Shown piece after piece: positions 890 to 63,330 of a DNA stretch of 64,000 nt. A program made the position numbers and the translations under genes. Source of the DNA: a virus (taxonomy: Duplodnaviria > Caudoviricetes); the IMG/VR virus record IMGVR_UViG_3300042518_000285, positions 981 through 64,980 of that record, one strand, 5' to 3'. The notes below the pieces were generated by a model. That model saw only the letters and a program-made list of their open reading frames with translations. It searched no databases and was not told the origin of the DNA. Within the stretch, counting starts at the first letter, position 1; every line of letters begins with the position of its first letter.

Positions 890-1978
890 TCAGAACAACC
901 ACTGGTTTTCCAACGCCCAGTCCTTGAACTCCTTGTTCATCACACAGAACGACTGCTTGTCGGATGACTTCATCACGCTTGTTGCGAACAGGGCTTGCCA
1001 CTCCTTGTCCATACGTTTCAGGTAGTGCATCCATTTGTCTAGCGTGTCCTTGGAAACACGTGTCACCGCAGAGAACACCAAGATACATTTGGCAACCGTG
1101 TCCTCAGGTAGCTTGGCATTTTTCGGATCGTTCAATATCGCATCCCATGATGGCAACTTGTCCACCACAGTGAAGAACGCTTGCATGTCCCGCGCCGCAC
1201 TCTCACCGATAGTCCCAGTCAGCAGAGATATAGTCAGCGCATCACCTAGTTCACTACGTTGTTTGGCAATGAACGACGCCTTCTCCAAACTTCTTGGTGT
1301 AACCACCGCACCGCTACCGGCCCGCGTAGGGTTGAAGATATATACGTTCTCTTTCTGCGACAGATCGGTGTAGCTTGCTAGTGCATGCGGGAACTGCTTG
1401 ACCCACGCAATGATTGTCGGATCAACGTCGTTACCAATTGCCCACTCGATCCACTCATCTGCATCAGGCTTACGCACAGTCACCAAGCACACACGATTCC
1501 GAGCATGCGCTTCCAACATGTCACCCACACCATCTGACATCAAGTTGGTAGTGCCAAACACAATCGATCCCTCAGGCAGGTAGTGGTCACCAATGCGATG
1601 TTCTAGCATCAAGGTCAACAGCACATTCTTGACCGCCTTCATTGCCTTGCCAATCTCGTCAAGCATCACGATCACCGGCTTGCCCTCGTGCATCTTGAAC
1701 CGTGCGTTCGGTGCGAACTTCGTGACTTTGTTAACACCTGTTAACCCGTTCTCCACCACCTCGGTGTATGGCAGGGCAAAGTCACCCAAGTCCAGCAAGG
1801 TACAGTCGATGTACGCAATGGCATACTCGGGATACTGCTTGGCAAGAACTTTCAGCATGGAGGACTTGCCAATCCCCGGCTCACCTTGACCGATCACCGT
1901 CACATCACGCCCCACCTGCCCGATAGCTTTCGCAAACTCAATAAGCGATACGGACTGACCAAAGTTGATTGCACTCAT
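890..1978 (-). CDS. AAA+ ATPase (MoxR/dynein-related type)
   Basis: Walker A GEPGIGKS, Walker B VMLDE, sensor TTN, TPRS motif; adjacent to the vWA partner gene. Confidence 0.85.
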   Translation of the reverse strand: MSAINFGQSVSLIEFAKAIGQVGRDVTVIGQGEPGIGKSSMLKVLAKQYPEYAIAYIDCTLLDLGDFALPYTEVVENGLTGVNKVTKFAPNARFKMHEGKPVIVMLDEIGKAMKAVKNVLLTLMLEHRIGDHYLPEGSIVFGTTNLMSDGVGDMLEAHARNRVCLVTVRKPDADEWIEWAIGNDVDPTIIAWVKQFPHALASYTDLSQKENVYIFNPTRAGSGAVVTPRSLEKASFIAKQRSELGDALTISLLTGTIGESAARDMQAFFTVVDKLPSWDAILNDPKNAKLPEDTVAKCILVFSAVTRVSKDTLDKWMHYLKRMDKEWQALFATSVMKSSDKQSFCVMNKEFKDWALENQWLF

Positions 1979-2029
1979 TTGTTTCTCCTTTTAGGTTGAT
2001 TACTTCTTACTACTACCACTGTAAGACAT

Positions 2030-4641: not shown

Positions 4642-5157
4642 TTACTTTGCTTTTGCCATTTCCGCCTTTGCCAGATTAAGCGCGGCGAGAACTTTCGGTA
4701 AATCGTATGAGCGCGATTCGGCTTTTTCCAGTCTACCGATCAGCGCGACAACGCGCTCCATATCGACAGTTTCCTCTGATTTTTCGCTTGCGGCGGATTC
4801 TACTTTTTCAGCCGGAAAAGCATATTTGACAACACGCGCAAACATGGTATCAGCAGTTGATCGGGCATCCTTTTTCGCCTGATACTGTACTTTCCACTTT
4901 TCAACACCGGCGGCGTCGAGCGCGTTATATTCTTTGCTACCCTTGCGTGGTAACTCCACAGCGAGCGCGGCGGCGTGGCGTTTGTCGAGCGCGGGTAGCA
5001 CAGCGTCTGCGATGAATTGTGCTTTGATTTCCAGCAACGCCGCTTCCGATCCGAAAAACTCACGCGCACCCGATCCGACAATCTGCCATTTATTAACAGT
5101 GTTGATATCATTGCGAATCGCGTCGATTACATTCTTGACTAATGTTTCGTATTTCAT
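4642..5157 (-). CDS. Hypothetical helical protein, monocistronic
   Basis: 171-aa ORF, SD GAGGTG, own terminator. Confidence 0.8.
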   Translation of the reverse strand: MKYETLVKNVIDAIRNDINTVNKWQIVGSGAREFFGSEAALLEIKAQFIADAVLPALDKRHAAALAVELPRKGSKEYNALDAAGVEKWKVQYQAKKDARSTADTMFARVVKYAFPAEKVESAASEKSEETVDMERVVALIGRLEKAESRSYDLPKVLAALNLAKAEMAKAK

Positions 5158-5292: not shown

Positions 5293-5561
5293 ACAACCCC
5301 ACCGTACCCCCACCCCCCGCTATTGGCTGTTGGTACCATCGCATGCCTTGCCTTAGTAATCTGCGCACCCGATCACAAAATCCCAAAAGGGTTACACTAA
5401 CCAAGGGGGTCGCAGCTTGTTAGTTTATTAACAAGTCGTCAGGGATAGGCAAGTGACCCCCACCCCCCTCTAAAATCTGCTGGACTAATCTAAATATCAA
5501 AATAGAAAAACACCCCCCTTGCCTTTTTGGGTCCCCTACAACCCCACCGGGGGGTATATAT
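5293..5561. repeat. C/G-run-rich intergenic region with short direct repeats before terS
   Basis: ACAACCCCACCG at 5293 and 5538; ACCCCCACCCCCC at 5306 and 5456; GGGGGGTATATAT at 5549 (also at 4383). Confidence 0.6.
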
Positions 5562-45000: not shown

Positions 45001-48000
45001 TCGCAAATTAACCGTGAAGCGGTTGCTCAGTTTGCACCGGTTATCGAGAAGCGCATCGCAAGCCTAAAGCTTGAGGAAGAAGAGCGAGAAGCAGCTAGAC
45101 CCAAAGCTGAGCCTACCGAAGGTAGTTTAGATCGACTTGCTGCAATCAAAGCCGCATCTGAAAAAATGTCAGGTGAGGTTGCAGCGACCGGTAAAGAAGC
45201 GGAACGTAATACAAAATCTATTTTAAAAGCTTACGAAAAAAAGTTCGGTAAAAAGTTGTTCCTGCCCGTGCATCGTGGACCTGACTTGTCCGACGCGGGC
45301 CGCGCACTGGTTGAAAGTGGCGACCTAAAAGGTGTTATTGATTACCTCAGAAATTCAGTTAAGAGCAAAGTTGTACAGCAGATTCTTAACAAGATCAAAA
45401 CACTCAACCTTGGCACTAAGATTGTTGTCGGGCCGGTTGAAGGCAATCAGGCTGGCTCTTTCGACCCGCGCACTAACACCATAACCATCAACCCCGAGAT
45501 GGGGATGAACGAGCACACGCTGCTGCATGAACTCATGCACGCTGCCATATCCCATGTGCTACGCAACCCTAACCTGCCAGTCACCAAGCAGCTAACGTCG
45601 TTGTTCACCCAGATCCAGAACCAGATGGGTGCGGCGTACGGTGCCCAAGACTTGCAGGAGTTTGCTGCCGAACTGGTAAGTAACCCTGAGTTCCAAGCTC
45701 TGCTCAAGACCATCAAGACCCCTAAGAGTCAGAACATGTTTGTGCGGTTTATGCAAACACTGGCGGAGTTTTTTGGGTTTGCGAAAGGCACCAACGCCTA
45801 CGACAAAGGCTTGAAGTTGGTCAGCGACGCTATCGATATATCCACAGATATTATTCCTTCCCCTGCCGATGTATTGTTCATGGGCACTCCTAACGGCGCA
45901 GCGATGGGTCTTGGTGTGGTTGGGCGTATTGGGCAGACGATGCCTTCGCTCGCTGGTAGGACTATAGAGGAAACCAAAAACTACTTGTCGAATATGCCGG
46001 GAGATACACAATCCCTCGCAATGGGGCTTCTGCGTTTGGACAACATCAACACCATCTACGGTAAAGAACTACCGTCTCTCCAGAAACTTCTTGATGCATT
46101 GGAGAAACGTAATGGCATGCAGGAAAAGTACATCAAGCGCATCAACGAGAACTATAAGCGCTTTTTGGATGTAGAAAGCCGCCACCCGCAAGCCATGCAG
46201 CGTATGAACGACATGGCGATTGACGCACGACGCGAACAAGTCGATATACTCGACCCAAAGTTTAAGCCAAGCGCGACGCAACTGGCGCAATACAACCGAC
46301 TGAAGAGCGTCTACAACGGACTGCCCGATGATGTTAAAAAAGTCTACAGAGACATCCGTGGTGAATACGATGCGGCTATCAACGAGTACGAAGATATTCT
46401 GCTTAACTCCGTCCAAGACCCGTCGGTACGTCGTAAATTAAAAGCTCAGTATGAAGCACGTAAACGGCAGGTTGGCTATATCCCGTTCCTGCGCCGAGGC
46501 GACTTCTGGGTTGAGTACGATGAGAATGGTGAGCGTGCAGTACAAGCGTTCCAATCTCAACGTGAGCGTCAGATGTTTATCGACAGCCAACTCAAAGGTA
46601 AGTCGTACAAGATTTATAAGAACATAAACGAAGCGACATTCAATCAGAGCACACTGCCTTCCTCGTCGTTTATCGTCGGGTTGATGGGCGAGTTGAACAA
46701 GCAGGGTGCGAGTGACCAGCTCAAGCAGAACGTATATCAGTCATACCTAGCGTTATTCCCAGCCGAGTCTTTGGCAAAGAACTTCATGAAGTCCGAAAAT
46801 TTTCTGGGCATGGAGCGAGACATCGTGCGCGGGTATGGCGAGACGATGATCAAGTGGGCACGCAAGCTGTCATCCAGTAAGTACAACCCTGAGATTGACC
46901 GTGCGTTGAGCGAAATAGCCACACAGGGAAGTGAAGCATCTACCAAGCCTGACGGTGCTGGGGCTTACGCCGCTGCTCAGAATGTAATGGATCAGGCAAG
47001 CTTCCTACATAATCCAACATACGGAAAACTTGTTAGCGCCACCACAACACTTAGCTACTTTGCTCACATCGCGGGTAACGTCTCGTCGGCTCTAATTAAC
47101 TTGACCACGCTTCCGATGTTCTCTTGGTCAATTCTTGGTGCCAAGTTTGGGTTTGATCAGTCTTTCCTTGCTCTGTCGTCAGCTTCCAAAACCACAATCG
47201 ACTATATCTTTAACAATAAGATACCAACTAAGTACGCTAAGTTGTTTGATGTGCTGAATGATCACGCGCAGTTGGAACACACGATGGCCCGTGAGGTGCT
47301 GGAAGGGCGTAGACAAACAACTTCTGAGTTCATCGGTATCAAGGCTCGGATCATGGACGGCGTGTCCATCCCGTTTAGTAAAGCAGAAGTACTTAACAGA
47401 GGCGCAACGGCTATTGCTGCTTACGATCTGGCACGGGCTGGTAGTTCAGCGATGGGTATAAAGCCCATGAACGAACAGGATGCGATCCGCTATGCCTTGA
47501 ACACCGTCAAGGAGATCAACACTTCTGGCCTGTCCGCAACTGCTCCGCGCTTTATGCAGCATCCGGCTGGGCGTGTGTTCTTTACGTTCAAGTCGTTTGT
47601 GTGGAATAGTGCATTCGTGGTGGGTCGTGCCTTTCATCAGGCCGTAAAAGGTGAATCCCCTGCGGTACGCAAAGAAGCCTTCCGGCAACTGATTGGTATC
47701 TATGGCATGGCGATGGCGTTTGCTGGTATCAAAGGTCTGCCGTTCATGGGGGCTGTATCTACACTGGCAACCATTATCAATTCACTGCTTGGTGACGATG
47801 ATGAGCCGTATGACTTCGATGTCATGATGCGTAGCTGGACAGACGAGTTGTTCTACAAAGGTCTGGTCAACTACGCTACCAATCTGGAAATCGCTAATCG
47901 TGTTGGTGTGGCTAACGACCTAATCTTCCGCGATGACCCCAAGGGGGTTGCAGAAAATGGCTACGTATTGACCGCCATACAGCAAGCATTTGGTCCTGCC

Positions 48001-48534
48001 GGGGCATTTGCAGCAAGTGTGGAAGATGGCGCTAAGCAGGTGTCGGAAGGTAATATCGTGCGCGGTATCGAGGCGATGTTGCCTACATTCTTGAAAAATA
48101 TACTCAAGGCGACGCGCTATGCTACCGAAGGTGTCACAAACCGTAAAGGCGAGTTAATTATAGATGACATCTCCAACTACAACGTAGTTATGCAAATCGT
48201 CGGGTTCTCTCCTGCCAACTTGTCTAATGTGTACGAAGAGATTGGCATGAAGAAGGACTTTGAGCGCAAAGTAATGGCACAGCGTAGCAAGCTGCTCAAT
48301 AAGTACGACATGGCACGTCGGGCTGGAGACTCAGATTTGATGACAGAGGCACTAGAAGAGATCGGCGAGTACAACGAGAAGCGCAAAGATCCTAAGGCCA
48401 AGATCACTCAGGACACATTGAATCGATCAGTCAGGGCACGAGAGGCTGCTGAAAGAGATAGCGTCAACGGCGTTCGGTTCAATAAGAACCTAAGAACTGA
48501 GATTGACGATCTGTTGGAAGAGTACGAGGAGTAA
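42010..48534 (+). CDS. Large polyvalent ejection protein (GNAT + zincin + PLxRFG-like region)
   Basis: PGQGAGSELL...FYERRGF (GNAT); LLHELMH...EFAAE (zincin); YIPFLRRGDFWV. Confidence 0.8.
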   Translation: MIINLPKLGPVRFDDNLTEAQLNARVNELAKKYDFKVPTPEFGLGETFTRAVKRGTKQLGILGGDVLPAMVGKGLGFEDYAARQMEEAAVSQQEIARQRPPIFESYKQVESPYQALQFGIEVIGEQIPNIATSLIPGFGLGAVTGRAALTSTGKALATQAAERGLAGEAATAFVAEGMKRAAPQIAAKAQTGQNVGIFLGSYAQNAPEIFQNIVQETGQMEVGTSLLFGAGAAALDSILPAQLARQLTGPMKAGIVEKVLEKSGMDRGILRSTTSGLIKGTAGEGLTEGAQEALSIAAEKFVADNPQVFGSKEWDRIMEASVRGAIAGGGFGVVGGSVERMRERAADLRAQAEQAERERRIEDAARLRKEVEDAEQQIAEMERHVAGRDSEKEQGRLAEMELGPASRLPEEQIRRFEALAAGKPAEFFEPQKTAKRAAESAKNKLGGKQLELFGPEGKLTKEAEKAATADEKRAVNVARQQAKKEAAELKQYQDSLKKFLGAKQLVLPGMSPEEVAAAQKQQAELEEQIKTTGQGDLFTGMPAAPKTTDEEATKALKISPQPKPEEFANSPIEGYTFEIPGAKASLIHDAEKSPNIWKVARLRAAKPGQGAGSELLNKIVDWADENNATLTLIAAADTPEGKKLSQEKLVEFYERRGFEPDEQARRRIEAGVEYNTLVRYPKTKPGQIDTTAPVEEAIAEPTKVEAPTGVEGTIISNTKEGLAALGKQLGIGRTAKILRPDGPLAGKDLSDPAQAAEVRRVLEAYASGKPAEGAASKIEEFLLRPEFEAAPMEVPSEPTAQFDIGRSEPSVPSDITDGAEQLGDRGAGELAEPISTGLGETGPAAGDINVGEEAAGRPLGVKETKDVARAEAATEEAVRQQADFVTKNDERTNNILTGLLREAAAAEGIDPKFLPSEDLRGTPEHSYLRLPSLINEYLRLRDILGIPPTTPAERAQAARNQQEFEIIRDAILQSDPNMPQFLQNMEAATPAQREQVLSQINREAVAQFAPVIEKRIASLKLEEEEREAARPKAEPTEGSLDRLAAIKAASEKMSGEVAATGKEAERNTKSILKAYEKKFGKKLFLPVHRGPDLSDAGRALVESGDLKGVIDYLRNSVKSKVVQQILNKIKTLNLGTKIVVGPVEGNQAGSFDPRTNTITINPEMGMNEHTLLHELMHAAISHVLRNPNLPVTKQLTSLFTQIQNQMGAAYGAQDLQEFAAELVSNPEFQALLKTIKTPKSQNMFVRFMQTLAEFFGFAKGTNAYDKGLKLVSDAIDISTDIIPSPADVLFMGTPNGAAMGLGVVGRIGQTMPSLAGRTIEETKNYLSNMPGDTQSLAMGLLRLDNINTIYGKELPSLQKLLDALEKRNGMQEKYIKRINENYKRFLDVESRHPQAMQRMNDMAIDARREQVDILDPKFKPSATQLAQYNRLKSVYNGLPDDVKKVYRDIRGEYDAAINEYEDILLNSVQDPSVRRKLKAQYEARKRQVGYIPFLRRGDFWVEYDENGERAVQAFQSQRERQMFIDSQLKGKSYKIYKNINEATFNQSTLPSSSFIVGLMGELNKQGASDQLKQNVYQSYLALFPAESLAKNFMKSENFLGMERDIVRGYGETMIKWARKLSSSKYNPEIDRALSEIATQGSEASTKPDGAGAYAAAQNVMDQASFLHNPTYGKLVSATTTLSYFAHIAGNVSSALINLTTLPMFSWSILGAKFGFDQSFLALSSASKTTIDYIFNNKIPTKYAKLFDVLNDHAQLEHTMAREVLEGRRQTTSEFIGIKARIMDGVSIPFSKAEVLNRGATAIAAYDLARAGSSAMGIKPMNEQDAIRYALNTVKEINTSGLSATAPRFMQHPAGRVFFTFKSFVWNSAFVVGRAFHQAVKGESPAVRKEAFRQLIGIYGMAMAFAGIKGLPFMGAVSTLATIINSLLGDDDEPYDFDVMMRSWTDELFYKGLVNYATNLEIANRVGVANDLIFRDDPKGVAENGYVLTAIQQAFGPAGAFAASVEDGAKQVSEGNIVRGIEAMLPTFLKNILKATRYATEGVTNRKGELIIDDISNYNVVMQIVGFSPANLSNVYEEIGMKKDFERKVMAQRSKLLNKYDMARRAGDSDLMTEALEEIGEYNEKRKDPKAKITQDTLNRSVRAREAAERDSVNGVRFNKNLRTEIDDLLEEYEE

Positions 48535-48559
48535 AAAAGACCCCCGGCGTACCGGGGGT
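48533..48559 (-). terminator. Intrinsic terminator between convergent operons
   Basis: Minus strand CCCCCGG-TACG-CCGGGGG-TC-TTTTTT. Confidence 0.85.
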
Positions 48560-48598
48560 TAATTCTTCTCATTGAAATGTGAAGGAGAAGAAGAGTGC
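48533..48598 (-). ncRNA. Candidate ~65-nt anti-RBS small RNA
   Basis: Promoter 48605-48634, predicted +1 G at 48598, 5' GCACUCUUCUUCUCCUU, internal UUCUUCUC/GAGAAGAA stem, ends at the terminator. Confidence 0.55.
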
Positions 48599-48807
48599 GA
48601 GGGCATTATATCCTCAACTCTCCAGACCCGTAAACCGTACTTGCCTCGCTCCACCACTTGTTTACAAATAACTTCGACTTTTAGCCGCTTGGCTTCGGTT
48701 TCTACAAACCGTTGCGTGAGCTTGCGATCCAAACAAGGCACGAAGAACGACGTGCCCGGCTCGAATTTATCCCACTCAATCAATAGTGGCAGTCCCAGTA
48801 TCTTCAT
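48559..48807 (-). CDS. Hypothetical protein
   Basis: 82 aa (G.SFFVP...GLRVWRV), overlaps the primase stop. Confidence 0.7.
   Translation of the reverse strand: MKILGLPLLIEWDKFEPGTSFFVPCLDRKLTQRFVETEAKRLKVEVICKQVVERGKYGLRVWRVEDIMPSHSSSPSHFNEKN
48605..48634 (-). promoter_or_regulatory. Sigma70-type promoter with no downstream ORF before the terminator
   Basis: TTTACG-N18-TATAAT on the minus strand. Confidence 0.55.
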
Positions 48808-51661
48808 CTTTTAGCAACACTGTTTCGCTGAAGTACTCCAGCTTGGACGTATCAAACCAAATAGCACTGACCGGTGCTTGCATGTTGGCAACAGTCCCTG
48901 CGGTCATACGCTTTTTCTTGATGTCCACAAACGCCTTGCTCTTGCGATAAGGGATCAAGGACTCCTCAAAGTTCATGAACAGCTTGGCGCAGTCGTCTCG
49001 ATAGACCTTTGTGACAACAAACAATAGCTTGGTGTCTGGCTCATACCGGATGGTAAGTGCCCCGCGAGGTTCCCGAATTGGGCCAAATTCAACCCCCGTA
49101 CGCTTGTCGCGGTTGCCGTTGATGACCAGAATCTCATGGAAGTGTCGCTGCAAAAACCCACCAAGGAAGTCATCTGCGTCCAGCATAAGCTCTTTGGTGC
49201 GGGTACGAGTCTCCTTGACCAAGTTAACGCCAAAGTCAAACACCGGCTTGATCGGTATGTCGTGCAAACCAAGTGTTTTGGCAATCGCCCCACCTGTTAT
49301 GCTTATTGTGACCATAGCTGACCAGTACCGTTCTGTGTTCGTGATACCAGCAGCCGCATCTACCTTGGCCTCAAACTCTTCTATCTTCTGCATGACCATC
49401 GGAAGTTGGCCTAGTACCGCCTTCGAATACGGCTCGATAGCATGCCCGTAGTTGGATAGCAGCTTGCCAAAATGATTTCTTGACCAGTGCGGATCGTTGT
49501 GCGTATCCGGCTTTACGTTGATCTCCAAGATACGATTCAGTTCACCATCGGGAAAGCCCTTTATGTTCAGCAGCATGTCGGGCACTGACCGGTTGCTCGA
49601 AGTAACCAACCCACTAGAAAACTTGGTGTGGTTTAGTCGTTCAGCGTTCTCGTGCCGACTCATCCGGTTCTTGCCCCGCCCAGAAGTCACGTCATAAATT
49701 TGTTGTGACATGTGATCCGGCTGCATGTTGGTGATCTCGTCCATCGTCACGCAAAGGTTTTGCAGGGTTCCGAACCGCTGCATCCGTGCGTTGTATGTAT
49801 CTTTAGGCGATAGCATTAGCTCTTTGGGTCTGCCGTAGATACTGTTGATAGCGTGTAGGATGGTTGTCTTGCCCGAACCAGACTCACGGCTCATCAGGTT
49901 AACGAGAAACCCATCAAGTGCGCCCTTTGCAACGAATGGCATCAGCAACGTGCCAAACCCCATGAAGAAAGAAAAAGCTCTGCCTTCCATCCCCGGTCTG
50001 CCGTACGCGTTGATGACATCCTTCCAAACATGAAAGTCACCTTTGGGGGTGAACAACGGCACCAGTGGTAGGGTCGGTGCGGATGGGGGGCTGTAACTTA
50101 CTCCTGTTGCTCTGATCTCTCGGTCGCCTACGATGATTGCAGACTGATCATCTACCCAACCAAACTGCTTATGCGCCTTCTCTGCTTGCATTGACATTTG
50201 CAACTCCTCTACCCATTTCGCCACGTACCACATGAGCGTGTCTTGCTGCTTGCTAAGCGCAGCGATGCCGTGTGATGCGATGATTTCTCTGAACTTATCT
50301 TTAGCTAGTGCCGATGCCAAGGGTATGATGAACTCGCGCACTCCATCTTTTGGCAGATGTAGGCGTAGCAGCAAGGTCTCACCCAAGTCGGGGTCGGTCA
50401 TGCGCTTGACTACATAGAAGTCGTACGGATAAACAACTTCATCTATATCGTTACCATCTTTGTCTTTGGTGTGAACGAACACCCCGCCGTTCTTGCCACG
50501 GAAAAACGGGAACGGAAACTTCGGGATGACGTATTCTTTAAGTTCTTTAGTCTGCGCTTCGACACCAATGACGGTGCTTTGTTCTTCCGTAGCCTCGACG
50601 ATCTCTCGCCCCAACTGAATAGGCGACGTGATCTTTTGCTGGCATCCTTCGCAACCTGTGGGATTAAGTTTCTTAAAAGTCTCGCAGGTGTACGGACCTT
50701 TTGTCTCGTTTGCTTTCTTCTCGGTATGCTCGAACGAATACCCCGGATACCCCTTGCTGATAACATGTATTGCTTTGTCGCGGTCTATGCACTGCTGGGC
50801 AATAGATAGACCGGCTCTCCACAACGGCTCCTCGATTGTGGCTTGGTTGTCGTAGATATTGACGATCTGTGCGCAGCCGTTACCCTCAACCGACTTGATC
50901 AGGATTGTCTTGAATCGTGACTGACTCGCACCGATCAAAGCTAGGGTCGTTGCATCAAGTGGTCGCTTGCCAAACTCCTTGGCGACTGTTTCTAGTACAG
51001 CGTCCGATGGCTCTAGCAGTTCCTTTATGCGTTCGTTCGGAACCAGCGGTGCCAGATACAGAATCTCAACCGGTATCGGATTGGTCGGATCTTTCAGGTG
51101 ATTGGTTTCAGGAACGCGCAACACCCGCGCCGCATCTGCTGGCACGGCGTAGTCAATATCAAACTTGTGTGTGGTGCAAAGGCTCTTGAGCTGCTCGGCA
51201 AATGGCTTCCACTCCTCTTTGGTAAGAGGCTCTTCCAGAATCCAGTACACGTGCGCACCGCGCCCAGACCTAAGAATCGTCGGCTTCGGTAGCCCAGTGG
51301 CTTTGCAGAAGTTCTTGAGTGCTACCAACCCATCATCTAGCGTGGCGTAAGGCTTCCCCTCGCCACAATCAAGGTCTAAGAAAAACGACTTGAGCGCAAT
51401 CGCGTTGGTTGCGTAGCGTCCGTTCTTGGTCGCACCGAACTTAGCCAGTGCAAAGAAAGAATTGAACCCGCCGTTTTGCAGATCGTCCGCTTGGCTGCTG
51501 AGAACGTCGATACTGTTCGCAAACCGCTGCCGAACAACGTCTTTGTACTTGTCCTCGCCGTCCTCTTGGACTAGCTCTTTTTTATTACCCCAGTTGCAGT
51601 AGTGCTCACCTTCTTCAAGAGGTGGTAACACCAATGCAAAAAATTCTTTGCGAGAGAGCAT
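48776..51661 (-). CDS. Primase-helicase (AEP/RepB-like N-terminus, DUF927-type helicase)
   Basis: FLDLD, SGRGAHVYW, ARVLRVP, EEPLW..L; Walker A SGSGKTT, Walker B TMDE. Confidence 0.85.
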   Translation of the reverse strand: MLSRKEFFALVLPPLEEGEHYCNWGNKKELVQEDGEDKYKDVVRQRFANSIDVLSSQADDLQNGGFNSFFALAKFGATKNGRYATNAIALKSFFLDLDCGEGKPYATLDDGLVALKNFCKATGLPKPTILRSGRGAHVYWILEEPLTKEEWKPFAEQLKSLCTTHKFDIDYAVPADAARVLRVPETNHLKDPTNPIPVEILYLAPLVPNERIKELLEPSDAVLETVAKEFGKRPLDATTLALIGASQSRFKTILIKSVEGNGCAQIVNIYDNQATIEEPLWRAGLSIAQQCIDRDKAIHVISKGYPGYSFEHTEKKANETKGPYTCETFKKLNPTGCEGCQQKITSPIQLGREIVEATEEQSTVIGVEAQTKELKEYVIPKFPFPFFRGKNGGVFVHTKDKDGNDIDEVVYPYDFYVVKRMTDPDLGETLLLRLHLPKDGVREFIIPLASALAKDKFREIIASHGIAALSKQQDTLMWYVAKWVEELQMSMQAEKAHKQFGWVDDQSAIIVGDREIRATGVSYSPPSAPTLPLVPLFTPKGDFHVWKDVINAYGRPGMEGRAFSFFMGFGTLLMPFVAKGALDGFLVNLMSRESGSGKTTILHAINSIYGRPKELMLSPKDTYNARMQRFGTLQNLCVTMDEITNMQPDHMSQQIYDVTSGRGKNRMSRHENAERLNHTKFSSGLVTSSNRSVPDMLLNIKGFPDGELNRILEINVKPDTHNDPHWSRNHFGKLLSNYGHAIEPYSKAVLGQLPMVMQKIEEFEAKVDAAAGITNTERYWSAMVTISITGGAIAKTLGLHDIPIKPVFDFGVNLVKETRTRTKELMLDADDFLGGFLQRHFHEILVINGNRDKRTGVEFGPIREPRGALTIRYEPDTKLLFVVTKVYRDDCAKLFMNFEESLIPYRKSKAFVDIKKKRMTAGTVANMQAPVSAIWFDTSKLEYFSETVLLKDEDTGTATID

Positions 51662-51662
51662 A

Positions 51663-51745
51663 ACCGTCCTTAACGAACCGTCAAAAGAGGATGGGCAGGG
51701 GCGTGACGGTAACGCCCTCTTCGGTAGCTAACCTAGCCCCCCTAC
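51663..51745 (-). ncRNA. Structured 5' leader of the primase-helicase with loop complementary to its RBS
   Basis: Hairpin GGGCGT-TACCGTC-ACGCCC; GACGGT occurs twice downstream, once within the RBS. Confidence 0.55.
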
Positions 51746-51750
51746 AACTG

Positions 51751-51981
51751 TTAAGCTAACTTTTCAATTAGCTTATTCATGCGGTCAACGTGTTTGCCGG
51801 AGACAACCGCTTTACCTTTGAACCACTTGTAAACGGTCATTCGGCTGACCTTAAAGAAGTCGGCAACATCTGTAACAGGAATGTCGTCTCGTAAACAAAT
51901 CTGTGCCAGTTGTACGCCGAGCAGTTTCTGGTCAGCCCTCCGAATCTCTTCCACGGTTAGTAGTGAGTATCCGGTCGGCAT
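51751..51981 (-). CDS. HTH DNA-binding protein
   Basis: VTDVADFFKVSRMTVYKWFKG; start revised to MPTGYS. Confidence 0.8.
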   Translation of the reverse strand: MPTGYSLLTVEEIRRADQKLLGVQLAQICLRDDIPVTDVADFFKVSRMTVYKWFKGKAVVSGKHVDRMNKLIEKLA

Positions 51982-51982
51982 A

Positions 51983-52882
51983 TTAGTCATCCCACTCGTC
52001 AAGGATTTTGGATAAGTCTTTCTTCTCCGCTGGTGCTTCCTCCTTCTTTGCGGTGCGCTTCACGGGTTCTTCGACTTCTTCTACTTCTACGGCGGCAACT
52101 TCTTTCTTTGGCTTAACCGTTTCAAATTCCAAAGCGTTGGCTTCTGCTACCTTCACACCATCAGTTTCAGCAACGGTCATGGTGATGGCACGTTTCGCAG
52201 CAGCCGATTTACCCTGATCGATTGCAGCCGCATGCTCGTTGGAATCCAGAACACGTACTGGCTTGAATGTCAGTTTCGGTGTGGCGCTGCTAGTATCAAA
52301 GCGCATCTCGGTGACAACCGCTGTAATGGGTACACCCTTGCTACCAATCATCTTGGCGTACGTCTGCAAAGGCCACTTACCAGCTTCGCCAGCACCAAAG
52401 ATAGACGCAGCAGGTAAGGTTAACTGGAAGATGTCACCCTTAACGTCATTGGCTAATACGACAGCCAAGCGTTGACTGTAACGGCAAGCACGGCTTTCAC
52501 CCTGTCCCGAGCCTCTAATGTTTTGTGGGCAGTCGAGGCATCGCTTGGACTGTGGTTCTTTGACTTTTGCGTCTGGCATTTCTCCATCCGCTGACCAGCA
52601 GTCGGGAGCAGTAACCTCGCCACCTTCTGAGTATTGCTTTGCATAAAACGTCCTTGATACTTTCTCTGCCGCTGCGACGATTACAACATTCATCGAACGG
52701 TCTTCGTTCTTGGCTACTTCCTTACCATTCACCATCATGCGCCATACGCCGCCCTTGATGGAAATACGTTTTGATTCTCCGCCACCGCCCCCACCCATCA
52801 GGGCTTTAGTGGTTGCATCTAGCTCCGCATCTTTTAGGTAAGAGGGAAGACCTTGATCCAGCACTGCGAGTTCGTTACTCAT
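51983..52882 (-). CDS. Probable single-stranded DNA-binding protein
   Basis: In the replication module; Cys cluster, acidic tail ending LDEWDD. Confidence 0.55.
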   Translation of the reverse strand: MSNELAVLDQGLPSYLKDAELDATTKALMGGGGGGESKRISIKGGVWRMMVNGKEVAKNEDRSMNVVIVAAAEKVSRTFYAKQYSEGGEVTAPDCWSADGEMPDAKVKEPQSKRCLDCPQNIRGSGQGESRACRYSQRLAVVLANDVKGDIFQLTLPAASIFGAGEAGKWPLQTYAKMIGSKGVPITAVVTEMRFDTSSATPKLTFKPVRVLDSNEHAAAIDQGKSAAAKRAITMTVAETDGVKVAEANALEFETVKPKKEVAAVEVEEVEEPVKRTAKKEEAPAEKKDLSKILDEWDD

Positions 52883-52891
52883 TGCACTCTC

Positions 52892-53275
52892 CTAGCGTTT
52901 AACGATAACAATAGTTTGTGTCACATCCGCGTTCAGCCCCGGCGGATGCACATCGGGGTTTTCTTCAAGGTACTGCTGCATGTTGGCTGTGTTGATGCGT
53001 TGGTAAAGCAAAGACATAACGTCTTTCTCTTTGATGAACTTATAGAACGCATCCCAGTCCGTAGGCCAGAATCGTTTATTAGTCCTTCGAGAGATGGTGC
53101 CGTGCTGAGTGCGTATAGTTGCAGCCCCTTGCTCTTTGCAAATCTCAAGCAACTGATGAGCGACTAACTCTAACTGCTCTTCTAGTTCACGATCTTGCTT
53201 TGCAAGTTCTTTACGCTTCTCACGGATTTTGACATAGACTTTTGCAAGCCTATCAGCATTAACTGTTTCTGACAT
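52892..53275 (-). CDS. Replication-module hypothetical protein
   Basis: 127 aa, SD AAGGAG, own promoter. Confidence 0.75.
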   Translation of the reverse strand: MSETVNADRLAKVYVKIREKRKELAKQDRELEEQLELVAHQLLEICKEQGAATIRTQHGTISRRTNKRFWPTDWDAFYKFIKEKDVMSLLYQRINTANMQQYLEENPDVHPPGLNADVTQTIVIVKR

Positions 53276-53305
53276 CGCACTCTCCTTTTTATGAACTGCT
53301 GACTA

Positions 53306-53334: not shown

Positions 53335-54878
53335 GTATCTTCAACCACATTTTTATAAAGATCGATGAGTCGTGAATGAATATCAACTTTCTCTGACAAC
53401 ATCTTGTAGATACGATGCTCGACTGGGCTGCCTTGCAGATGCACAACCGTACATGGGTTGCGTTGCCCAGCGCGATGCACTCGTGCATTAGCTTGTAGGT
53501 AAGTTTCAATAGATGTAATCGGACCCCACCAGACAACGACGTTTGCAGCATGAAGTGTTACACCGTGCGCAGCAGCTTGTGGTTGAATGACTAACACGTG
53601 TGGGCTGTCTGTCGTTTGAAAGTTGGCAAATATTTCCGTGCGTTTAGTTGCACTGATGCCGCCATGAATTACCTCAGTGCTAATTCCGTTTGACTTTAAC
53701 TCTTCGGCAATTATGTCAATGGCATGTTTGAACGGCGCAAACACAATGACCTTGTGGCTTGCCTCTTCTATAACTTCCAGCAGCGCGTTCAGGCGACTCT
53801 TGGCATCAAACGCCACCACCTCTCCAGTATCGGCATACACTGCACCGCACGACAGTTGTAATAACTTGTTGAGATTTGCCGCTGCATTGACAGTCGTGAT
53901 CTCTTCTCCTGCGGCGACCGTCATCATGTCTCTTCGGATCAGCTCGTAGAATTTCTTTTGTTGCGCCGACAGCGGAACATCTCTGGTTACGTACGTCATG
54001 TCGGGTAAGTCAAGGCACTCTTCTTTTGTGAATCGTATGGCTGGCTGCAACACATCGTGGACTAGCTTTTCTGATTGCGGCTTGGGTATCCACTTAAACT
54101 GTGTAATGCGTTGCATTACCATGTCGCGGAACGCGCCATAGAACTTAGGTACTCCGCTCGGGTTTATTAATTTCGCAAGGCCGTACGCATCGGTGGGCGA
54201 TTGCGACGCAGGGGTTCCGGTCAGCATCCATACCCAGCTTGTAGGTTTGATCAGCCCGGCTAGGGTCTTCCAACGCTTTGTCTGAACATTTTTGTAGGCG
54301 TTAGCTTCATCCACCACAATTAAATCAAAGTTGGCTTTCTCAACTTCTTCCTTGACGATCTCTAGCCCGTCGTAGTTGATGATCACAAACTCTGCGGAAC
54401 TGTTTATCGCTTCAACTCGTTTCTCTTTGTTGTAGCTGTGGGCGATAGCACATGTCCTGTGCATGGCGAACCGGAATAAGTCCGTCTCCCACGCTGGCTG
54501 CATGATGGACAGGGGACACAACACCAACACCCGCTTGATGACACCCTTGTTCAGTAAGTAGTCCGCTGCCCAGATAACGCTCGATGTCTTACCAGTACCC
54601 TGCTCGTTGAAACAGAACGCTCGTTTGTGCAGGGTTAGGAATGATGCGGTTTCTTTCTGGTGGTCGAACGGGCGGTACAGTCCGGGCCAGTCATACTGAT
54701 TTTTGATTGGGGACGGTACGTTCTTGATCCGCAGATTCTTCAGTACCTGAGCTTCTTCAAGCCCCCACTTCACCAGCACTTCGCCGGTATCTAGCACCTT
54801 GGCTTTTGGTATGACGGTTGTGATGCGGTTAGGTTCTTTAACGCGCAGCAGCAATGCCCTGTTGTCGATGATTTGCAC
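53331..54878 (-). CDS. SNF2-family (SF2) helicase; start revised to GTG (MQIIDNR)
   Basis: EQGTGKT, VVDEA, LTGTP, QANARVHRAGQ; SD GGAG before GTG 54878. Confidence 0.9.
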   Translation of the reverse strand: MQIIDNRALLLRVKEPNRITTVIPKAKVLDTGEVLVKWGLEEAQVLKNLRIKNVPSPIKNQYDWPGLYRPFDHQKETASFLTLHKRAFCFNEQGTGKTSSVIWAADYLLNKGVIKRVLVLCPLSIMQPAWETDLFRFAMHRTCAIAHSYNKEKRVEAINSSAEFVIINYDGLEIVKEEVEKANFDLIVVDEANAYKNVQTKRWKTLAGLIKPTSWVWMLTGTPASQSPTDAYGLAKLINPSGVPKFYGAFRDMVMQRITQFKWIPKPQSEKLVHDVLQPAIRFTKEECLDLPDMTYVTRDVPLSAQQKKFYELIRRDMMTVAAGEEITTVNAAANLNKLLQLSCGAVYADTGEVVAFDAKSRLNALLEVIEEASHKVIVFAPFKHAIDIIAEELKSNGISTEVIHGGISATKRTEIFANFQTTDSPHVLVIQPQAAAHGVTLHAANVVVWWGPITSIETYLQANARVHRAGQRNPCTVVHLQGSPVEHRIYKMLSEKVDIHSRLIDLYKNVVEDT

Positions 54879-54952
54879 TCTATCTCCAGACACTGATAGG
54901 CCGAAAGTGGTATTCCCACTTGCAGCCTATAAAAAATTACTTTGTAAACTAC

Positions 54953-61762: not shown

Positions 61763-62161
61763 CTACGTGCGTTTGGTGATGGTGATTTTGGATTCCAGAT
61801 AACGTAGGACAGCTAAGGTGTCGTAGTATTTGATGGTGGTGTCCTGCAACTTCTTCTGCAAATTATCGATCTCTGCTTGCGCCCGACCAAGCTGCTTCGC
61901 AAAAGATATCTCTGGTCTGGATGGTAGTGTTTTGACTGGCTCAACATTCGGCGTTATGGCAGTCAACGCAGGGGCATCGGCTATTGCGTACCGCCCATTG
62001 CCTAGCTTAGTTAGATAGCCATTCTGTTTCAACGTACCAAGCGCGGTGTACACACGACCAGCCGCCCTGCCAGTAGTTGTGATGAGTTCTTTTGGCTTCA
62101 TCGGGCCGTGTGTTTTGATAGCGCGGGTTACTGACTCACGAACTGAGATTTTGGTTTTCAT
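61763..62161 (-). CDS. Winged-helix + coiled-coil protein
   Basis: GPMKPKEL...VYTAL..L...GYL.K...GRY. Confidence 0.7.
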   Translation of the reverse strand: MKTKISVRESVTRAIKTHGPMKPKELITTTGRAAGRVYTALGTLKQNGYLTKLGNGRYAIADAPALTAITPNVEPVKTLPSRPEISFAKQLGRAQAEIDNLQKKLQDTTIKYYDTLAVLRYLESKITITKRT

Positions 62162-62430
62162 TTGCACTCTTCCTTTATTTGTTGAAATTCGTCATACGTA
62201 ATGTAGATAACAATTATGTTGTCTTGCAGTCTTCGTCCTATAAATTCTCCTTTGGTAGATTTATTAACATCTGTTAACTTGAGCATAGCGAACCGTTCAA
62301 CTACGAACTTAGGCGCAACATGAAACTCTGCGATCCAAACCGTTTCAAGTGACTCGTTATCTCGCGCAACGATGCTAATCGAATCGCCGCGCTCATCCAT
62401 AGTTACCCAGATAACAAATCTTCGATCCAT
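62158..62430 (-). CDS. Hypothetical protein
   Basis: 90 aa, SD GAGGA, own promoter. Confidence 0.7.
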   Translation of the reverse strand: MDRRFVIWVTMDERGDSISIVARDNESLETVWIAEFHVAPKFVVERFAMLKLTDVNKSTKGEFIGRRLQDNIIVIYITYDEFQQIKEECK

Positions 62431-62498: not shown

Positions 62499-63296
62499 TT
62501 ACTCGCCCATCACCTCGACCCAATAGCCGTTCTCACTAGTGCGTACACCAACCTCGGGGACGAATGTTTTCATCTCCATCATTCGCAGCATAGCAATTTG
62601 TTGTTGTATGGATAATGGCGCATCATCAATCGATTGATAGAAGTTGTTACCTTCTTGGATACCTGCATAGCCCAACTTGTCGGGGCAGTACACCTCAACC
62701 GTATCGTCGGTGTTTACGCACACATACACCTGCATCACCTTGCGTGACTCGCGTCGTATCTTTTCTTCCCATGCAGGCACACCTGATTGGATGATTTGTG
62801 CAAACCTCTCTGTCTGTGGTGTGTAGCCAGTAGCTTGCAGTCGGAGTATCTCGCGCATCAACTCGTCTCTTGTCACCGTGCAATGATCACGAACAAGTTT
62901 GTCTGCGGAGTACATCCAGTCTCGAATTGCTGATTCAAAGTCCCTGTGCCATCGATCCGCCATCTCCGCAATAGATATGGTGCGAATGTAGTCCTGCATG
63001 TAACGCACCAACTTCTTTACATCTGTAGTGCGTTTCTGATGTTTACGCGAACCAGTAAACCTACCCACATGTATCAGCCGAGACTCAATCACCCAGTACT
63101 CTTTGCCTTTCTCGTCTTTATCGAGAAAGACCGCCGCGATTGCTTTCTCTGGATGCCGAGTGTCGTAGAACCTAGCCGACCGTGTACCGAACTTGACATC
63201 GATAGGGAACCGACTGACCTGCGACTTGCGATACTCCTTCACAATACTCAGTATCTCGCAGCCCTCGGCTTCTTCGGTATTAATGAAATTCAACAT
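62499..63296 (-). CDS. Hypothetical early protein
   Basis: ~265 aa, SD AAGGAG. Confidence 0.75.
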   Translation of the reverse strand: MLNFINTEEAEGCEILSIVKEYRKSQVSRFPIDVKFGTRSARFYDTRHPEKAIAAVFLDKDEKGKEYWVIESRLIHVGRFTGSRKHQKRTTDVKKLVRYMQDYIRTISIAEMADRWHRDFESAIRDWMYSADKLVRDHCTVTRDELMREILRLQATGYTPQTERFAQIIQSGVPAWEEKIRRESRKVMQVYVCVNTDDTVEVYCPDKLGYAGIQEGNNFYQSIDDAPLSIQQQIAMLRMMEMKTFVPEVGVRTSENGYWVEVMGE

Positions 63297-63330
63297 CACA
63301 CTCTCCTTATTAACAGGTGTTAACTTATTG

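Follow-up and report, generated by a model that had tools for sequence, protein, structure and literature searches.

We analyzed a 64,000-nucleotide (nt) stretch of phage DNA, referred to here as the window (bases 981–64980 of the single-contig virus record IMGVR_UViG_3300042518_000285, 64,980 bp), and found that an element on its minus strand, at 48533–48634, is probably a phage-made small RNA (sRNA) that would dampen translation of early and replication genes of the phage that encodes it and would represent a new RNA family. An RNA of about 60–66 nt would be transcribed from a sigma-70-type promoter located in the last codons of the small open reading frame (ORF) that closes the replication operon, and would end at the terminator of that operon. 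The single-stranded 5′ end of this RNA, GCACUCU followed by a pyrimidine tract resembling an anti-Shine-Dalgarno sequence, would pair with the GGAG-AGUGC-AUG starts of early genes. A gene that we call gA would be targeted throughout the family, and in the clade of this phage also an SNF2 helicase gene, its neighbor gB, a helix-turn-helix (HTH)-like gene, a 265-amino acid (aa) gene, a 288-aa gene, and, in part, an AAA ATPase gene. Because the duplex would take up the Shine-Dalgarno sequence and the bases up to the start codon, it is expected to block 30S binding and reduce translation; early and replication proteins would then be under negative feedback or be shut down at a set time. That the effect is repressive, that it serves timing, and that a chaperone might be needed are inferred from sequence. 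A preliminary description of the window had proposed that the 5′ end of an sRNA pairs with a motif common to several early-gene starts, and this proposal is now backed by frame-independent conservation, covarying helices, a conserved target motif, and a co-change of the RNA with the start of gA.

The tail of the small ORF is conserved irrespective of reading frame

The element lies at the end of a run of minus-strand genes, a predicted replication operon that encodes DNA polymerase A, a PD-(D/E)XK nuclease, the SNF2 helicase, gA, gB, a primase, and a small protein of 82 aa. The 82-aa ORF overlaps the stop codon of the 961-aa DUF927 primase/helicase gene. It has 89 homologues of 64–83 aa, and a relative is encoded at 517 of the 597 matched IMG/VR stretches; by this conservation, the small ORF is a real protein gene, with no family in Pfam, PHROGs, or NCBIfam. 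The preliminary description held that the promoter has no ORF to drive. It is correct that no ORF begins downstream of the promoter, but the whole element is embedded in the 3′ tail of the 82-aa ORF.

We compared the position of the seed with the reading frame at 70 unique related loci, out of >500 related contigs (L-numbers below denote related loci or lineages and G-numbers relatives, in our own labelling). The CACTC core of the seed is in frame with the small ORF at 38 loci, in another phase at 3, past the stop codon at 22, and absent at 7. Among the 40 loci of standard geometry, the GCACTCT columns are 97–100% identical, including three codon third positions, whereas third positions over the 20 codons upstream of the seed have a mean conservation of 0.56. 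Since the seed is kept irrespective of the reading frame, third positions included, it appears to be constrained at the nucleotide level; judged by the same pattern, the tail of the small ORF is constrained as nucleic acid rather than as protein. The loci compared are not near-identical copies of one another, because branch lengths in a tree of their primases reach 1.3 changes per column.

A promoter-like site precedes the seed

A promoter scan recovered the minus-strand promoter named in the preliminary description, TTTACG-N18-TATAAT at 48634–48605, with 10 of 12 positions matching. Across the 70 unique loci, the −35 is mostly of the TTGCGN or TTACGN type and falls within the Leu-Arg codons of GLRVW, a conserved motif of the small ORF. 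The codons of this motif are invariant, so a coding constraint suffices to explain the conservation of the −35, which is uninformative by itself. For the −10, the pattern TAnnnT occurs at a spacing of 17 or 18 nt from the −35 in 69 of the 70 loci, and its T, A, A, and T columns are each 100% conserved in the loci of standard geometry. The ORF stops before or within the −10 in 15 of the 70 loci, which argues that the −10 is kept as DNA and not as codons. The start of the seed usually falls 6–7 nt past the −10; the distance grows to 9 nt in one clade, and the L030 group and L007 have 12 and 19 nt, respectively. We conclude that a predicted sigma-70-type promoter-like site is embedded in the last codons of the small ORF.

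The same RNA–RNA pairing could arise without an independent gene, if the 3′ end of the operon mRNA were cut off, as RNase E does for OppZ and CarZ, or acted in cis, and the promoter-like site were unused. The position of the element fits such a product, as it is last in the operon, uses the operon's terminator, and has a −35 that overlaps invariant codons; moreover, OppZ and CarZ are described as being processed from operon 3′ ends and pairing with their own transcripts (PMC7398697). We consider this explanation unlikely for three features of the locus. The −10 is held at a fixed spacing even where the ORF has already ended, the seed mostly begins at the usual start distance from it, and, in this genome, ribosomes translating the small ORF on a long mRNA would traverse the seed. 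The conserved −10 thus suggests that a primary transcript, rather than RNase E processing, would give rise to the RNA.

The predicted RNA contains two covarying hairpins

Transcription from G48598 would yield a 66-mer, exactly as the preliminary description wrote it. The minimum-energy fold of this RNA leaves six nucleotides (GCACUC) unpaired at the 5′ end, reproduces the 8-bp UUCUUCUC/GAGAAGAA stem claimed to free them, and continues into the terminator. The strong terminator expected downstream of the promoter is likewise found by a scan, as a stem (48559–48540) followed by a T run. The fold has an energy of −24.6 kcal/mol (z = −5.25), and none of 200 shuffled sequences was as stable. In a first set of relatives, all 23 unique RNAs fold into a free 5′ end, hairpin 1, a short U-rich linker, the terminator, and a U tail, and the free 5′ stretch is at least 4 nt long in 19 of the 23 folds. 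The U-rich linker and U tail, also present in the RNA of this phage, are only suggestive of the use of an Hfq-like chaperone.

A MAFFT alignment of the RNAs (A1) was rejected: hairpin 1 is misplaced in it, and RNAalifold on A1 sees only four terminator pairs. We adopted a covariance-model alignment because of this misalignment. The model (R1) was built from three close sequences with the minimum-energy structure of the window RNA. It finds a single full-length match in the window, at 48533–48598 (99 bits), and matches 65 of the 70 unique loci at the expected place, with three weak stray matches (E 0.2–1). The resulting alignment (A5, 59 distinct rows) is fitted to R1, which favors the structure; with this limit, 93.1% of its cells are paired, versus 75.3% for shuffled alignments (0 of 500 shuffles as high) and 42–65% for slid controls, and 14 of 16 pairs have changes on both sides. 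Double changes occur in all eight pairs of helix 1, in which 88.8% of cells are paired, and in six of the eight pairs of helix 2, the terminator, in which 96.4% of cells are paired. By these measures, both hairpins covary.

As a separate observation, the closely related contigs L026 (5600–5666) and L027 (8384–8450) carry the same RNA with the terminator loop reverse-complemented and the stem unchanged.

The seed complement lies at early-gene starts

The complement of the seed, AGAGTGC, occurs six times in the minus sense in the window (at 1197, 52884, 53277, 54015, 54875, and 62164) and once in the plus sense (at 48592), the latter being the RNA's own seed. Of the minus-sense copies, three lie immediately ahead of an ATG (gB, gA, and the HTH-like gene), the helicase gene has its GTG start within a fourth, and two are internal. 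The motif sites listed in the preliminary description are all present at their positions. Its count of five minus-sense copies missed one, at 1197–1203 within the AAA ATPase gene; its assignment of four copies to gene starts and of the copy at 54015–25 to a gene interior holds. The total of six minus-sense copies and one plus-sense copy is unremarkable against an expectation of ~3.9 per strand (64000/4^7). At the starts, the chance expectation is ~0.04 (about 41 early starts × 15 nt), compared with four copies found. It is therefore the placement of AGAGTGC at starts, and not its total number, that exceeds chance. The internal match in the helicase gene is kept in relatives along with the surrounding codons, so that its conservation can be explained by coding constraint.

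Outside the window, a seventh minus-sense copy is found at genome position 613–622 (window coordinate about −358), as GGAGAGTGCC-ATG, before a gene beginning MIQNS... that encodes 288 aa in a 93%-identical relative. The target set would thus reach beyond the window.

We ranked 91 start regions by net interaction energy, that is, the cofold energy with the RNA minus the two self-folds. The six targets proposed in the preliminary description rank first (the HTH gene, −13.3 kcal/mol), second (helicase), third (AAA ATPase), sixth (gA), seventh (265-aa gene), and eleventh (gB). The nuclease gene ranks fourth and the 288-aa gene ninth. A net energy of −6 kcal/mol or lower is reached by 15 of 41 early start regions versus 2 of 50 late ones, and this measure discriminates targets better than plain duplex energy.

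The target motif is conserved in relatives

At most loci, the sequence of the gA start is (A)AGGAGAGTGC(A/G)(A)ATG, despite divergent flanks and coding sequence. The helicase start takes the form GGAG-NN-AGA-GTG-CAAAT. The HTH gene carries the same motif at its start in G001 and G002, where the 265-aa gene starts with AGAGTGCG-ATG, and the AAA ATPase orthologues of G004 and G005 have GGAGAGTGCA-ATG or AGAGTGCAAC-ATG upstream of the start. The motif of gB is present in the closer clade only. Altogether, the motif is conserved at orthologous starts across 45–98% protein identity. The regulon envisaged in the preliminary description stands in that the same gene starts carry the motif in relatives; across the family, the comparison narrows it to gA as the sole family-wide predicted target, with the motif of gB, the HTH gene, and the 265-aa gene confined to some clades.

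Five full or nearly full relatives contain 10, 8, 7, 5, and 6 copies of AGAGTGC on the early strand and 1, 2, 2, 1, and 1 on the other strand (36 versus 7), while the reversed control pattern gives 2/2, 1/2, 4/0, 3/0, and 0/3 in the same genomes. At least two of the seven other-strand copies are the seed itself (G001 and G002, checked by coordinates). Among the early-strand copies examined, 20 of 34 sit at gene starts according to a manual classing, which was used since an automatic start criterion over-called by counting the GTG inside the motif as a start. The genes with start-site copies in relatives are the 288-aa gene, the 265-aa gene, the HTH gene, the AAA ATPase gene, a 68-aa gene, and the genes for helicase, gA, and gB. 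For gA, 47 of 61 unique pairs (a count that includes some wrong automatic start picks, in L016 and L117) contain seven or more consecutive Watson–Crick matches between the start region and the cognate RNA, as do 24 of 50 for the helicase and 26 of 59 for gB. The same test gives 4 of 60 for the primase, 5 of 57 for sm (the start after gB), 2 of 46 for g98, 2 of 12 for g106, and 2 of 19 for g226, all control genes.

The position of the AGTGC part of the motif relative to the start codon varies. For the AAA ATPase, it follows the ATG in this genome (ATGAGTGC) and precedes it in L063 (3907) and L064 (1798), and gA of L100 and L122 has the same ATGAGTGCA form, with the tag after the ATG. From these cases, the AGTGC tag seems able to move across the start codon.

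It would be simplest to regard the locus as an ordinary operon end, made of a coding tail and a terminator, whose pyrimidine stretch matches purine-rich ribosome-binding sites (RBSs) by chance. Pairing of a polypyrimidine tract with Shine-Dalgarno sequences is generic, background windows also reach low duplex energies, and the number of AGAGTGC copies in the window is near expectation. Chance is nevertheless a very improbable explanation, since it accounts neither for a seed and −10 conserved regardless of frame, nor for the covariation of hairpin 1, nor for the presence of the motif at orthologous starts; control starts with Shine-Dalgarno sequences pair far less often, and single lineages show long complementarities, described below.

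RNA and gA start region changed together

One position pair, made of the RNA base that precedes CAC and the gA start-region base that follows GAGUG, is G:C in 19 cases, U:A in 3, A:U in 1, and G:U in 2, so that 25 of 25 are pairable. The seed/target pair is GCAC/GUGC in the window, UCAC/GUGA in L133, and ACAC/GUGU in L104. A primase tree (FastTree, 62 rows) shows two changes of the seed base, each matched by a change of the target base to its complement (support 97 for the U:A clade and 100 for the A:U clade). In the L133–L135 clade, GGAGAGTGA is found at the gA start, and in L134 also at the helicase start; the L134 helicase start (GGAGAGTGAA-TTG) fits the UCACUCUCC seed of this U:A clade and has a different start codon. 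The check named in the preliminary description, co-conservation of seed and RBS motif in relatives, thus came out in its favor.

Complementarity between the RNA and gA extends further in some lineages. It covers 16 nt in L012, including the GUG start codon, 13 nt in L123, 12 nt in L138, and 10 nt in both L129 and L133. The run of L123 excludes the usual seed, and that of L138 is again a different sequence. Each of these long runs is matched by 0–6 of 2000 shuffled start regions and by 0–1 of 69 other gA start regions. Cognate pairs have a mean energy of −17.1 kcal/mol versus −15.1 kcal/mol for non-cognate pairs, with 0 of 10000 permutations as good, in a test that ignores relatedness. Taken together, the comparison indicates that the RNA and the gA start region changed together.

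A co-change of this kind would also be expected if the motif were bound by a phage protein, whether as double-stranded DNA or, in the manner of a translational operator, as RNA, with the copy beside the terminator being one more site in the opposite orientation and the changes following the specificity of the protein. Whole sets of sites changed together, as at the gA starts of L133–L135 and the helicase start of L134; the motif bearers include an HTH-like gene; and a second element, TGTTAAYAA (10 copies versus 1.36 expected), is present at several of the same start regions, so protein operators seem to exist there. We regard a protein site as improbable, because the departures from Watson–Crick pairing are limited to G-U wobbles, with 0 of 25 pairs unpairable, because the motif keeps strictly to one strand and is joined to a Shine-Dalgarno sequence and a start codon, and because the complementarity varies in length and direction by lineage, with runs in L123 and L138 that are unrelated to the core motif. 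Furthermore, at least two of the seven opposite-strand copies sit at a promoter start point followed by a covarying hairpin and a terminator.

Several observations weigh against an sRNA acting on early-gene starts, in addition to the limits stated above for alignment A5 and for the permutation test and the coding overlap of the −35. The covariation at a single position amounts to two independent events (sign test, p = 0.5). In L124 (6 nt), L130 (7), L139 (7), L132 (5), L104 (7), and L030 (7), the complementary run with gA is no longer than in shuffles. L007 keeps a seed-like sequence, yet its gA, gB, and helicase starts lack the motif; L112 has neither seed nor motif. Just 2 nt of the 5′ end are free in 4 of the 23 folds (L002, L014, L015, and L031). 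One late gene is fifth in the ranking by net energy, and plain duplex energy separates start regions only modestly from background windows (7 of 90 versus 33 of 1203 at −16 kcal/mol or lower). Finally, transcription from the predicted promoter is itself deduced from its sequence.

Table 1 Features of the predicted RNA, its candidate target sites, and neighboring genes (window coordinates)
Feature	Position	Strand	Remarks
Predicted small RNA, 66 nt	48533..48598	-	5′ seed, hairpin 1, linker, terminator, U tail
−35-like hexamer TTACGG	48628..48633	-	Family form TTGCGN; TTTACG of the preliminary description is 48634-48629
−10 hexamer TATAAT	48605..48610	-	17 nt after the −35 TTACGG
5′ seed GCACUCU	48592..48598	-	Pyrimidine tract continues to 48582
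Hairpin 1	48563..48592	-	Arms 48592-48585 and 48570-48563
Rho-independent terminator and U run	48533..48559	-	Stem 48559-48540; also ends the convergent late operon
Small ORF, 82 aa	48807..48559	-	3′ tail holds the −10 and seed
gA start region	53273..53287	-	AAGGAGAGTGCG-ATG; predicted family-wide target
gB start region	52880..52893	-	AGGAGAGTGCA-ATG
SNF2 helicase start region	54875..54887	-	GGAGATAGA-GTG-C; GTG start inside the motif
132-aa (HTH-like) gene start region	62159..62176	-	AAAGGAAGAGTGCAA-ATG; sub-threshold helix-turn-helix matches
265-aa gene start region	63294..63308	-	AAGGAGAGTGTG-ATG; AGAGTGT, G-U at one position
AAA ATPase start region	1971..1992	-	AAGGAGAAACAA-ATGAGTGC; split match
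Internal match in helicase gene, 11 nt	54015..54025	-	Coding ...KEECLD...
gA, 127 aa	53275..52892	-	DUF7307 ('Pam3 gp33-like'), 28.6 bits versus cut-off 27
gB, 299 aa	51983-52882	-	No family
Last late gene, 2174 aa	42010-48534	+	LPD39 'large polyvalent protein' domain; convergent late operon
TGTTAAYAA copies	2930-2938, 5090-5098, 5425-5433, 62261-62269, 63307-63315, and five more	-	10 copies in all; strand refers to the five listed

Comparison with known regulatory RNAs

None of the 4227 Rfam models, which include phage C4 and isrK, has a match at gathering score over 48533–48634, where the best matches are sub-threshold. A literature search found no description of this RNA, although such searches cannot be aimed at an uncultured phage group. 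The best Rfam score at the locus, 24.9 bits, belongs to RF02278 (Betaproteobacteria toxic small RNA), and membership was rejected against its gathering score of 50. Both RNAs are about 60 nt long, and when aligned they agree in having a 5′ end rich in pyrimidines (consensus UGUCUCCUCC), then a hairpin and an AUU linker, and finally a terminator of high GC content with a U tail; unlike the phage RNA, the RF02278 family is bacterial and chromosomal, and its function is called unknown (PMC4603805).

The gene arrangement resembles that of DapZ, MicL, and MicX, which are presented as sRNAs located at mRNA 3′ ends with a promoter inside the upstream coding sequence (PMC9438474). As in those RNAs, to the extent of that account, the predicted promoter lies near or around a stop codon, at the end of the upstream coding sequence, the terminator and U tail would be common to the RNA and the operon mRNA, and a conserved single-stranded seed is complementary to conserved sites in the ribosome-binding regions of other mRNAs. 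The phage RNA differs in its predicted targets, which belong to its own operon or module and are not unrelated host genes, and in the anti-Shine-Dalgarno-like tract of its seed; it is also known from sequence alone.

The choice of targets resembles that of OppZ and CarZ of Vibrio cholerae, described as autoregulatory sRNAs derived from 3′ untranslated regions (UTRs), cut by RNase E, that inhibit translation within their own operon (PMC7398697). A single run of same-strand genes ends at the terminator of the phage RNA and includes, upstream, the start regions of gA, gB, and the helicase, so that, at the sequence level, an RNA from the operon's 3′ end would pair with start regions of its own operon and provide negative feedback. 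Unlike OppZ and CarZ, which that source portrays as bacterial RNAs without a promoter of their own and with one suboperonic target, the phage RNA has a conserved −10, suggesting a primary transcript, and several predicted targets. It would thus combine a DapZ-like promoter embedded in an ORF with OppZ-like targeting of its own operon.

Among phage RNAs, the classes covered in the part of a review available to us are cis-antisense RNAs, c4, and sRNAs acting mainly on host genes (PMC12197685). The c4 antisense RNA of P1 and P7 is described there as blocking the RBS of a phage mRNA through short complementary stretches (PMC12197685). Similarly, the RNA described here would be a phage RNA acting on phage RBSs, and its seed/target pairs differ between clades as the specificity of c4 differs between relatives. 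By that account, c4 controls one antirepressor transcript for temperate-phage immunity, whereas here the replication module and many starts would be affected; no match to the Rfam C4 model was found at this RNA. The trans-acting phage sRNAs VpdS (vibriophage VP882), reported to influence phage and host mRNA levels, and PreS (lambda) (PMC12197685; 10.1101/2024.10.31.621285) differ, in the available descriptions, in having been found experimentally, in binding Hfq, and in acting largely on host targets, and they have no sequence relation to this RNA. The accessible parts of these sources make no mention of a shared motif at phage gene starts (PMC12197685; 10.1101/2024.10.31.621285). In the opposite direction, CisR is outlined as a host 3′ UTR sRNA acting on phage mRNA.

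Phage group and neighboring genes

The predicted RNA gene is conserved in hundreds of contigs from uncultured phages. Tentatively, these phages may form a widespread aquatic family, represented by >500 IMG/VR contigs. Searches of GenBank phages gave no blastn match to 47500–52000 and no tblastn match to the small ORF or gA. The terminase is 50–55% identical to those of Pelagibacter phages HTVC027P and HTVC023P (about 53% for these two) and of phage DSL-LC04; for 65-kb phages of Planktothrix and Synechococcus, the identity is 45%. The best cultured match of the primase, from Pseudomonas phage Rollin, has 29% identity; Rollin was discarded as a source of a comparable locus, as its downstream gene layout is different and contains no intergenic element. 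A search of bacterial genomes gave no match for the primase, and the small-ORF alignment matched one 4.8-kb contig of a cyanobacterial metagenome-assembled genome, which ends before the RNA region.

The last gene of the convergent late operon stops at 48534, 5 nt short of the shared terminator, which thus serves both operons; an HExxH-type motif is visible in the translation of its 2174-aa product. Sequence searches of the PDB gave nothing useful for gA and gB. The label 'SSB-like', given to the gene at 52882 (gB) in the preliminary description, finds no backing in Pfam, PHROGs, NCBIfam, or the PDB sequence search. Four cysteines are invariant in gB, whose acidic C terminus (...EWDD) is likewise conserved, and 17% of the members of a look-alike cluster of gB in the Atlas carry Pam3_Gp34. 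The gA/gB pair may therefore correspond to the neighboring genes 33 and 34 of cyanophage Pam3. The int-alpA RNA motif (RF02996) matches 51678–51743 on the minus strand, immediately before the primase/helicase start (51661), with 36.3 bits versus a gathering score of 35.8; this is the sole gathering-level match among the 4227 Rfam models in the window.

The number of TGTTAAYAA copies in the window was reached by none of 100 shuffles. Several copies are part of a TTAACA-N2-TGTTAA palindrome that closely precedes the Shine-Dalgarno sequence of early genes (such as those starting at 2920, 3538, and 63296), and they are also found in relatives. This element may be an operator for a phage regulator at start regions that bear the target motif of the RNA.

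Implications

More speculatively, and with some doubt on our part, the early and replication genes could be under one RNA master switch, which would combine mimicry of an anti-Shine-Dalgarno sequence with an 'address', GCAC, reading a 'tag', GUGC, placed between the Shine-Dalgarno sequence and the start codon, and whose seeds and tags would have co-evolved into mutually orthogonal lineage variants. Phage T4 has a translational repressor, RegA, and an endoribonuclease, RegB, proteins that shut down many early mRNAs at their ribosome-binding regions. If such a master switch exists, it would be an RNA counterpart of RegA and RegB, by functional analogy only, as the proposed effector here is an RNA and there the effectors are proteins; its orthogonal variants would be akin to the c4 immunity specificities of P1 and P7.

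The natural variants, with G:C, U:A, and A:U pairs and duplexes of 16, 13, and 12 nt, constitute ready-made compensatory tests, and the same variants are short orthogonal RNA/RBS pairs that could potentially serve as translational switches. For annotation, the locus illustrates that the 3′ tails of small phage ORFs can conceal RNA genes. The RNA originates from uncultured phages, in which RNA regulators are almost never seen, and, if the proposal is correct, a single sRNA directed against tagged early and replication genes of its own phage would be a new layer in the control of phage development.

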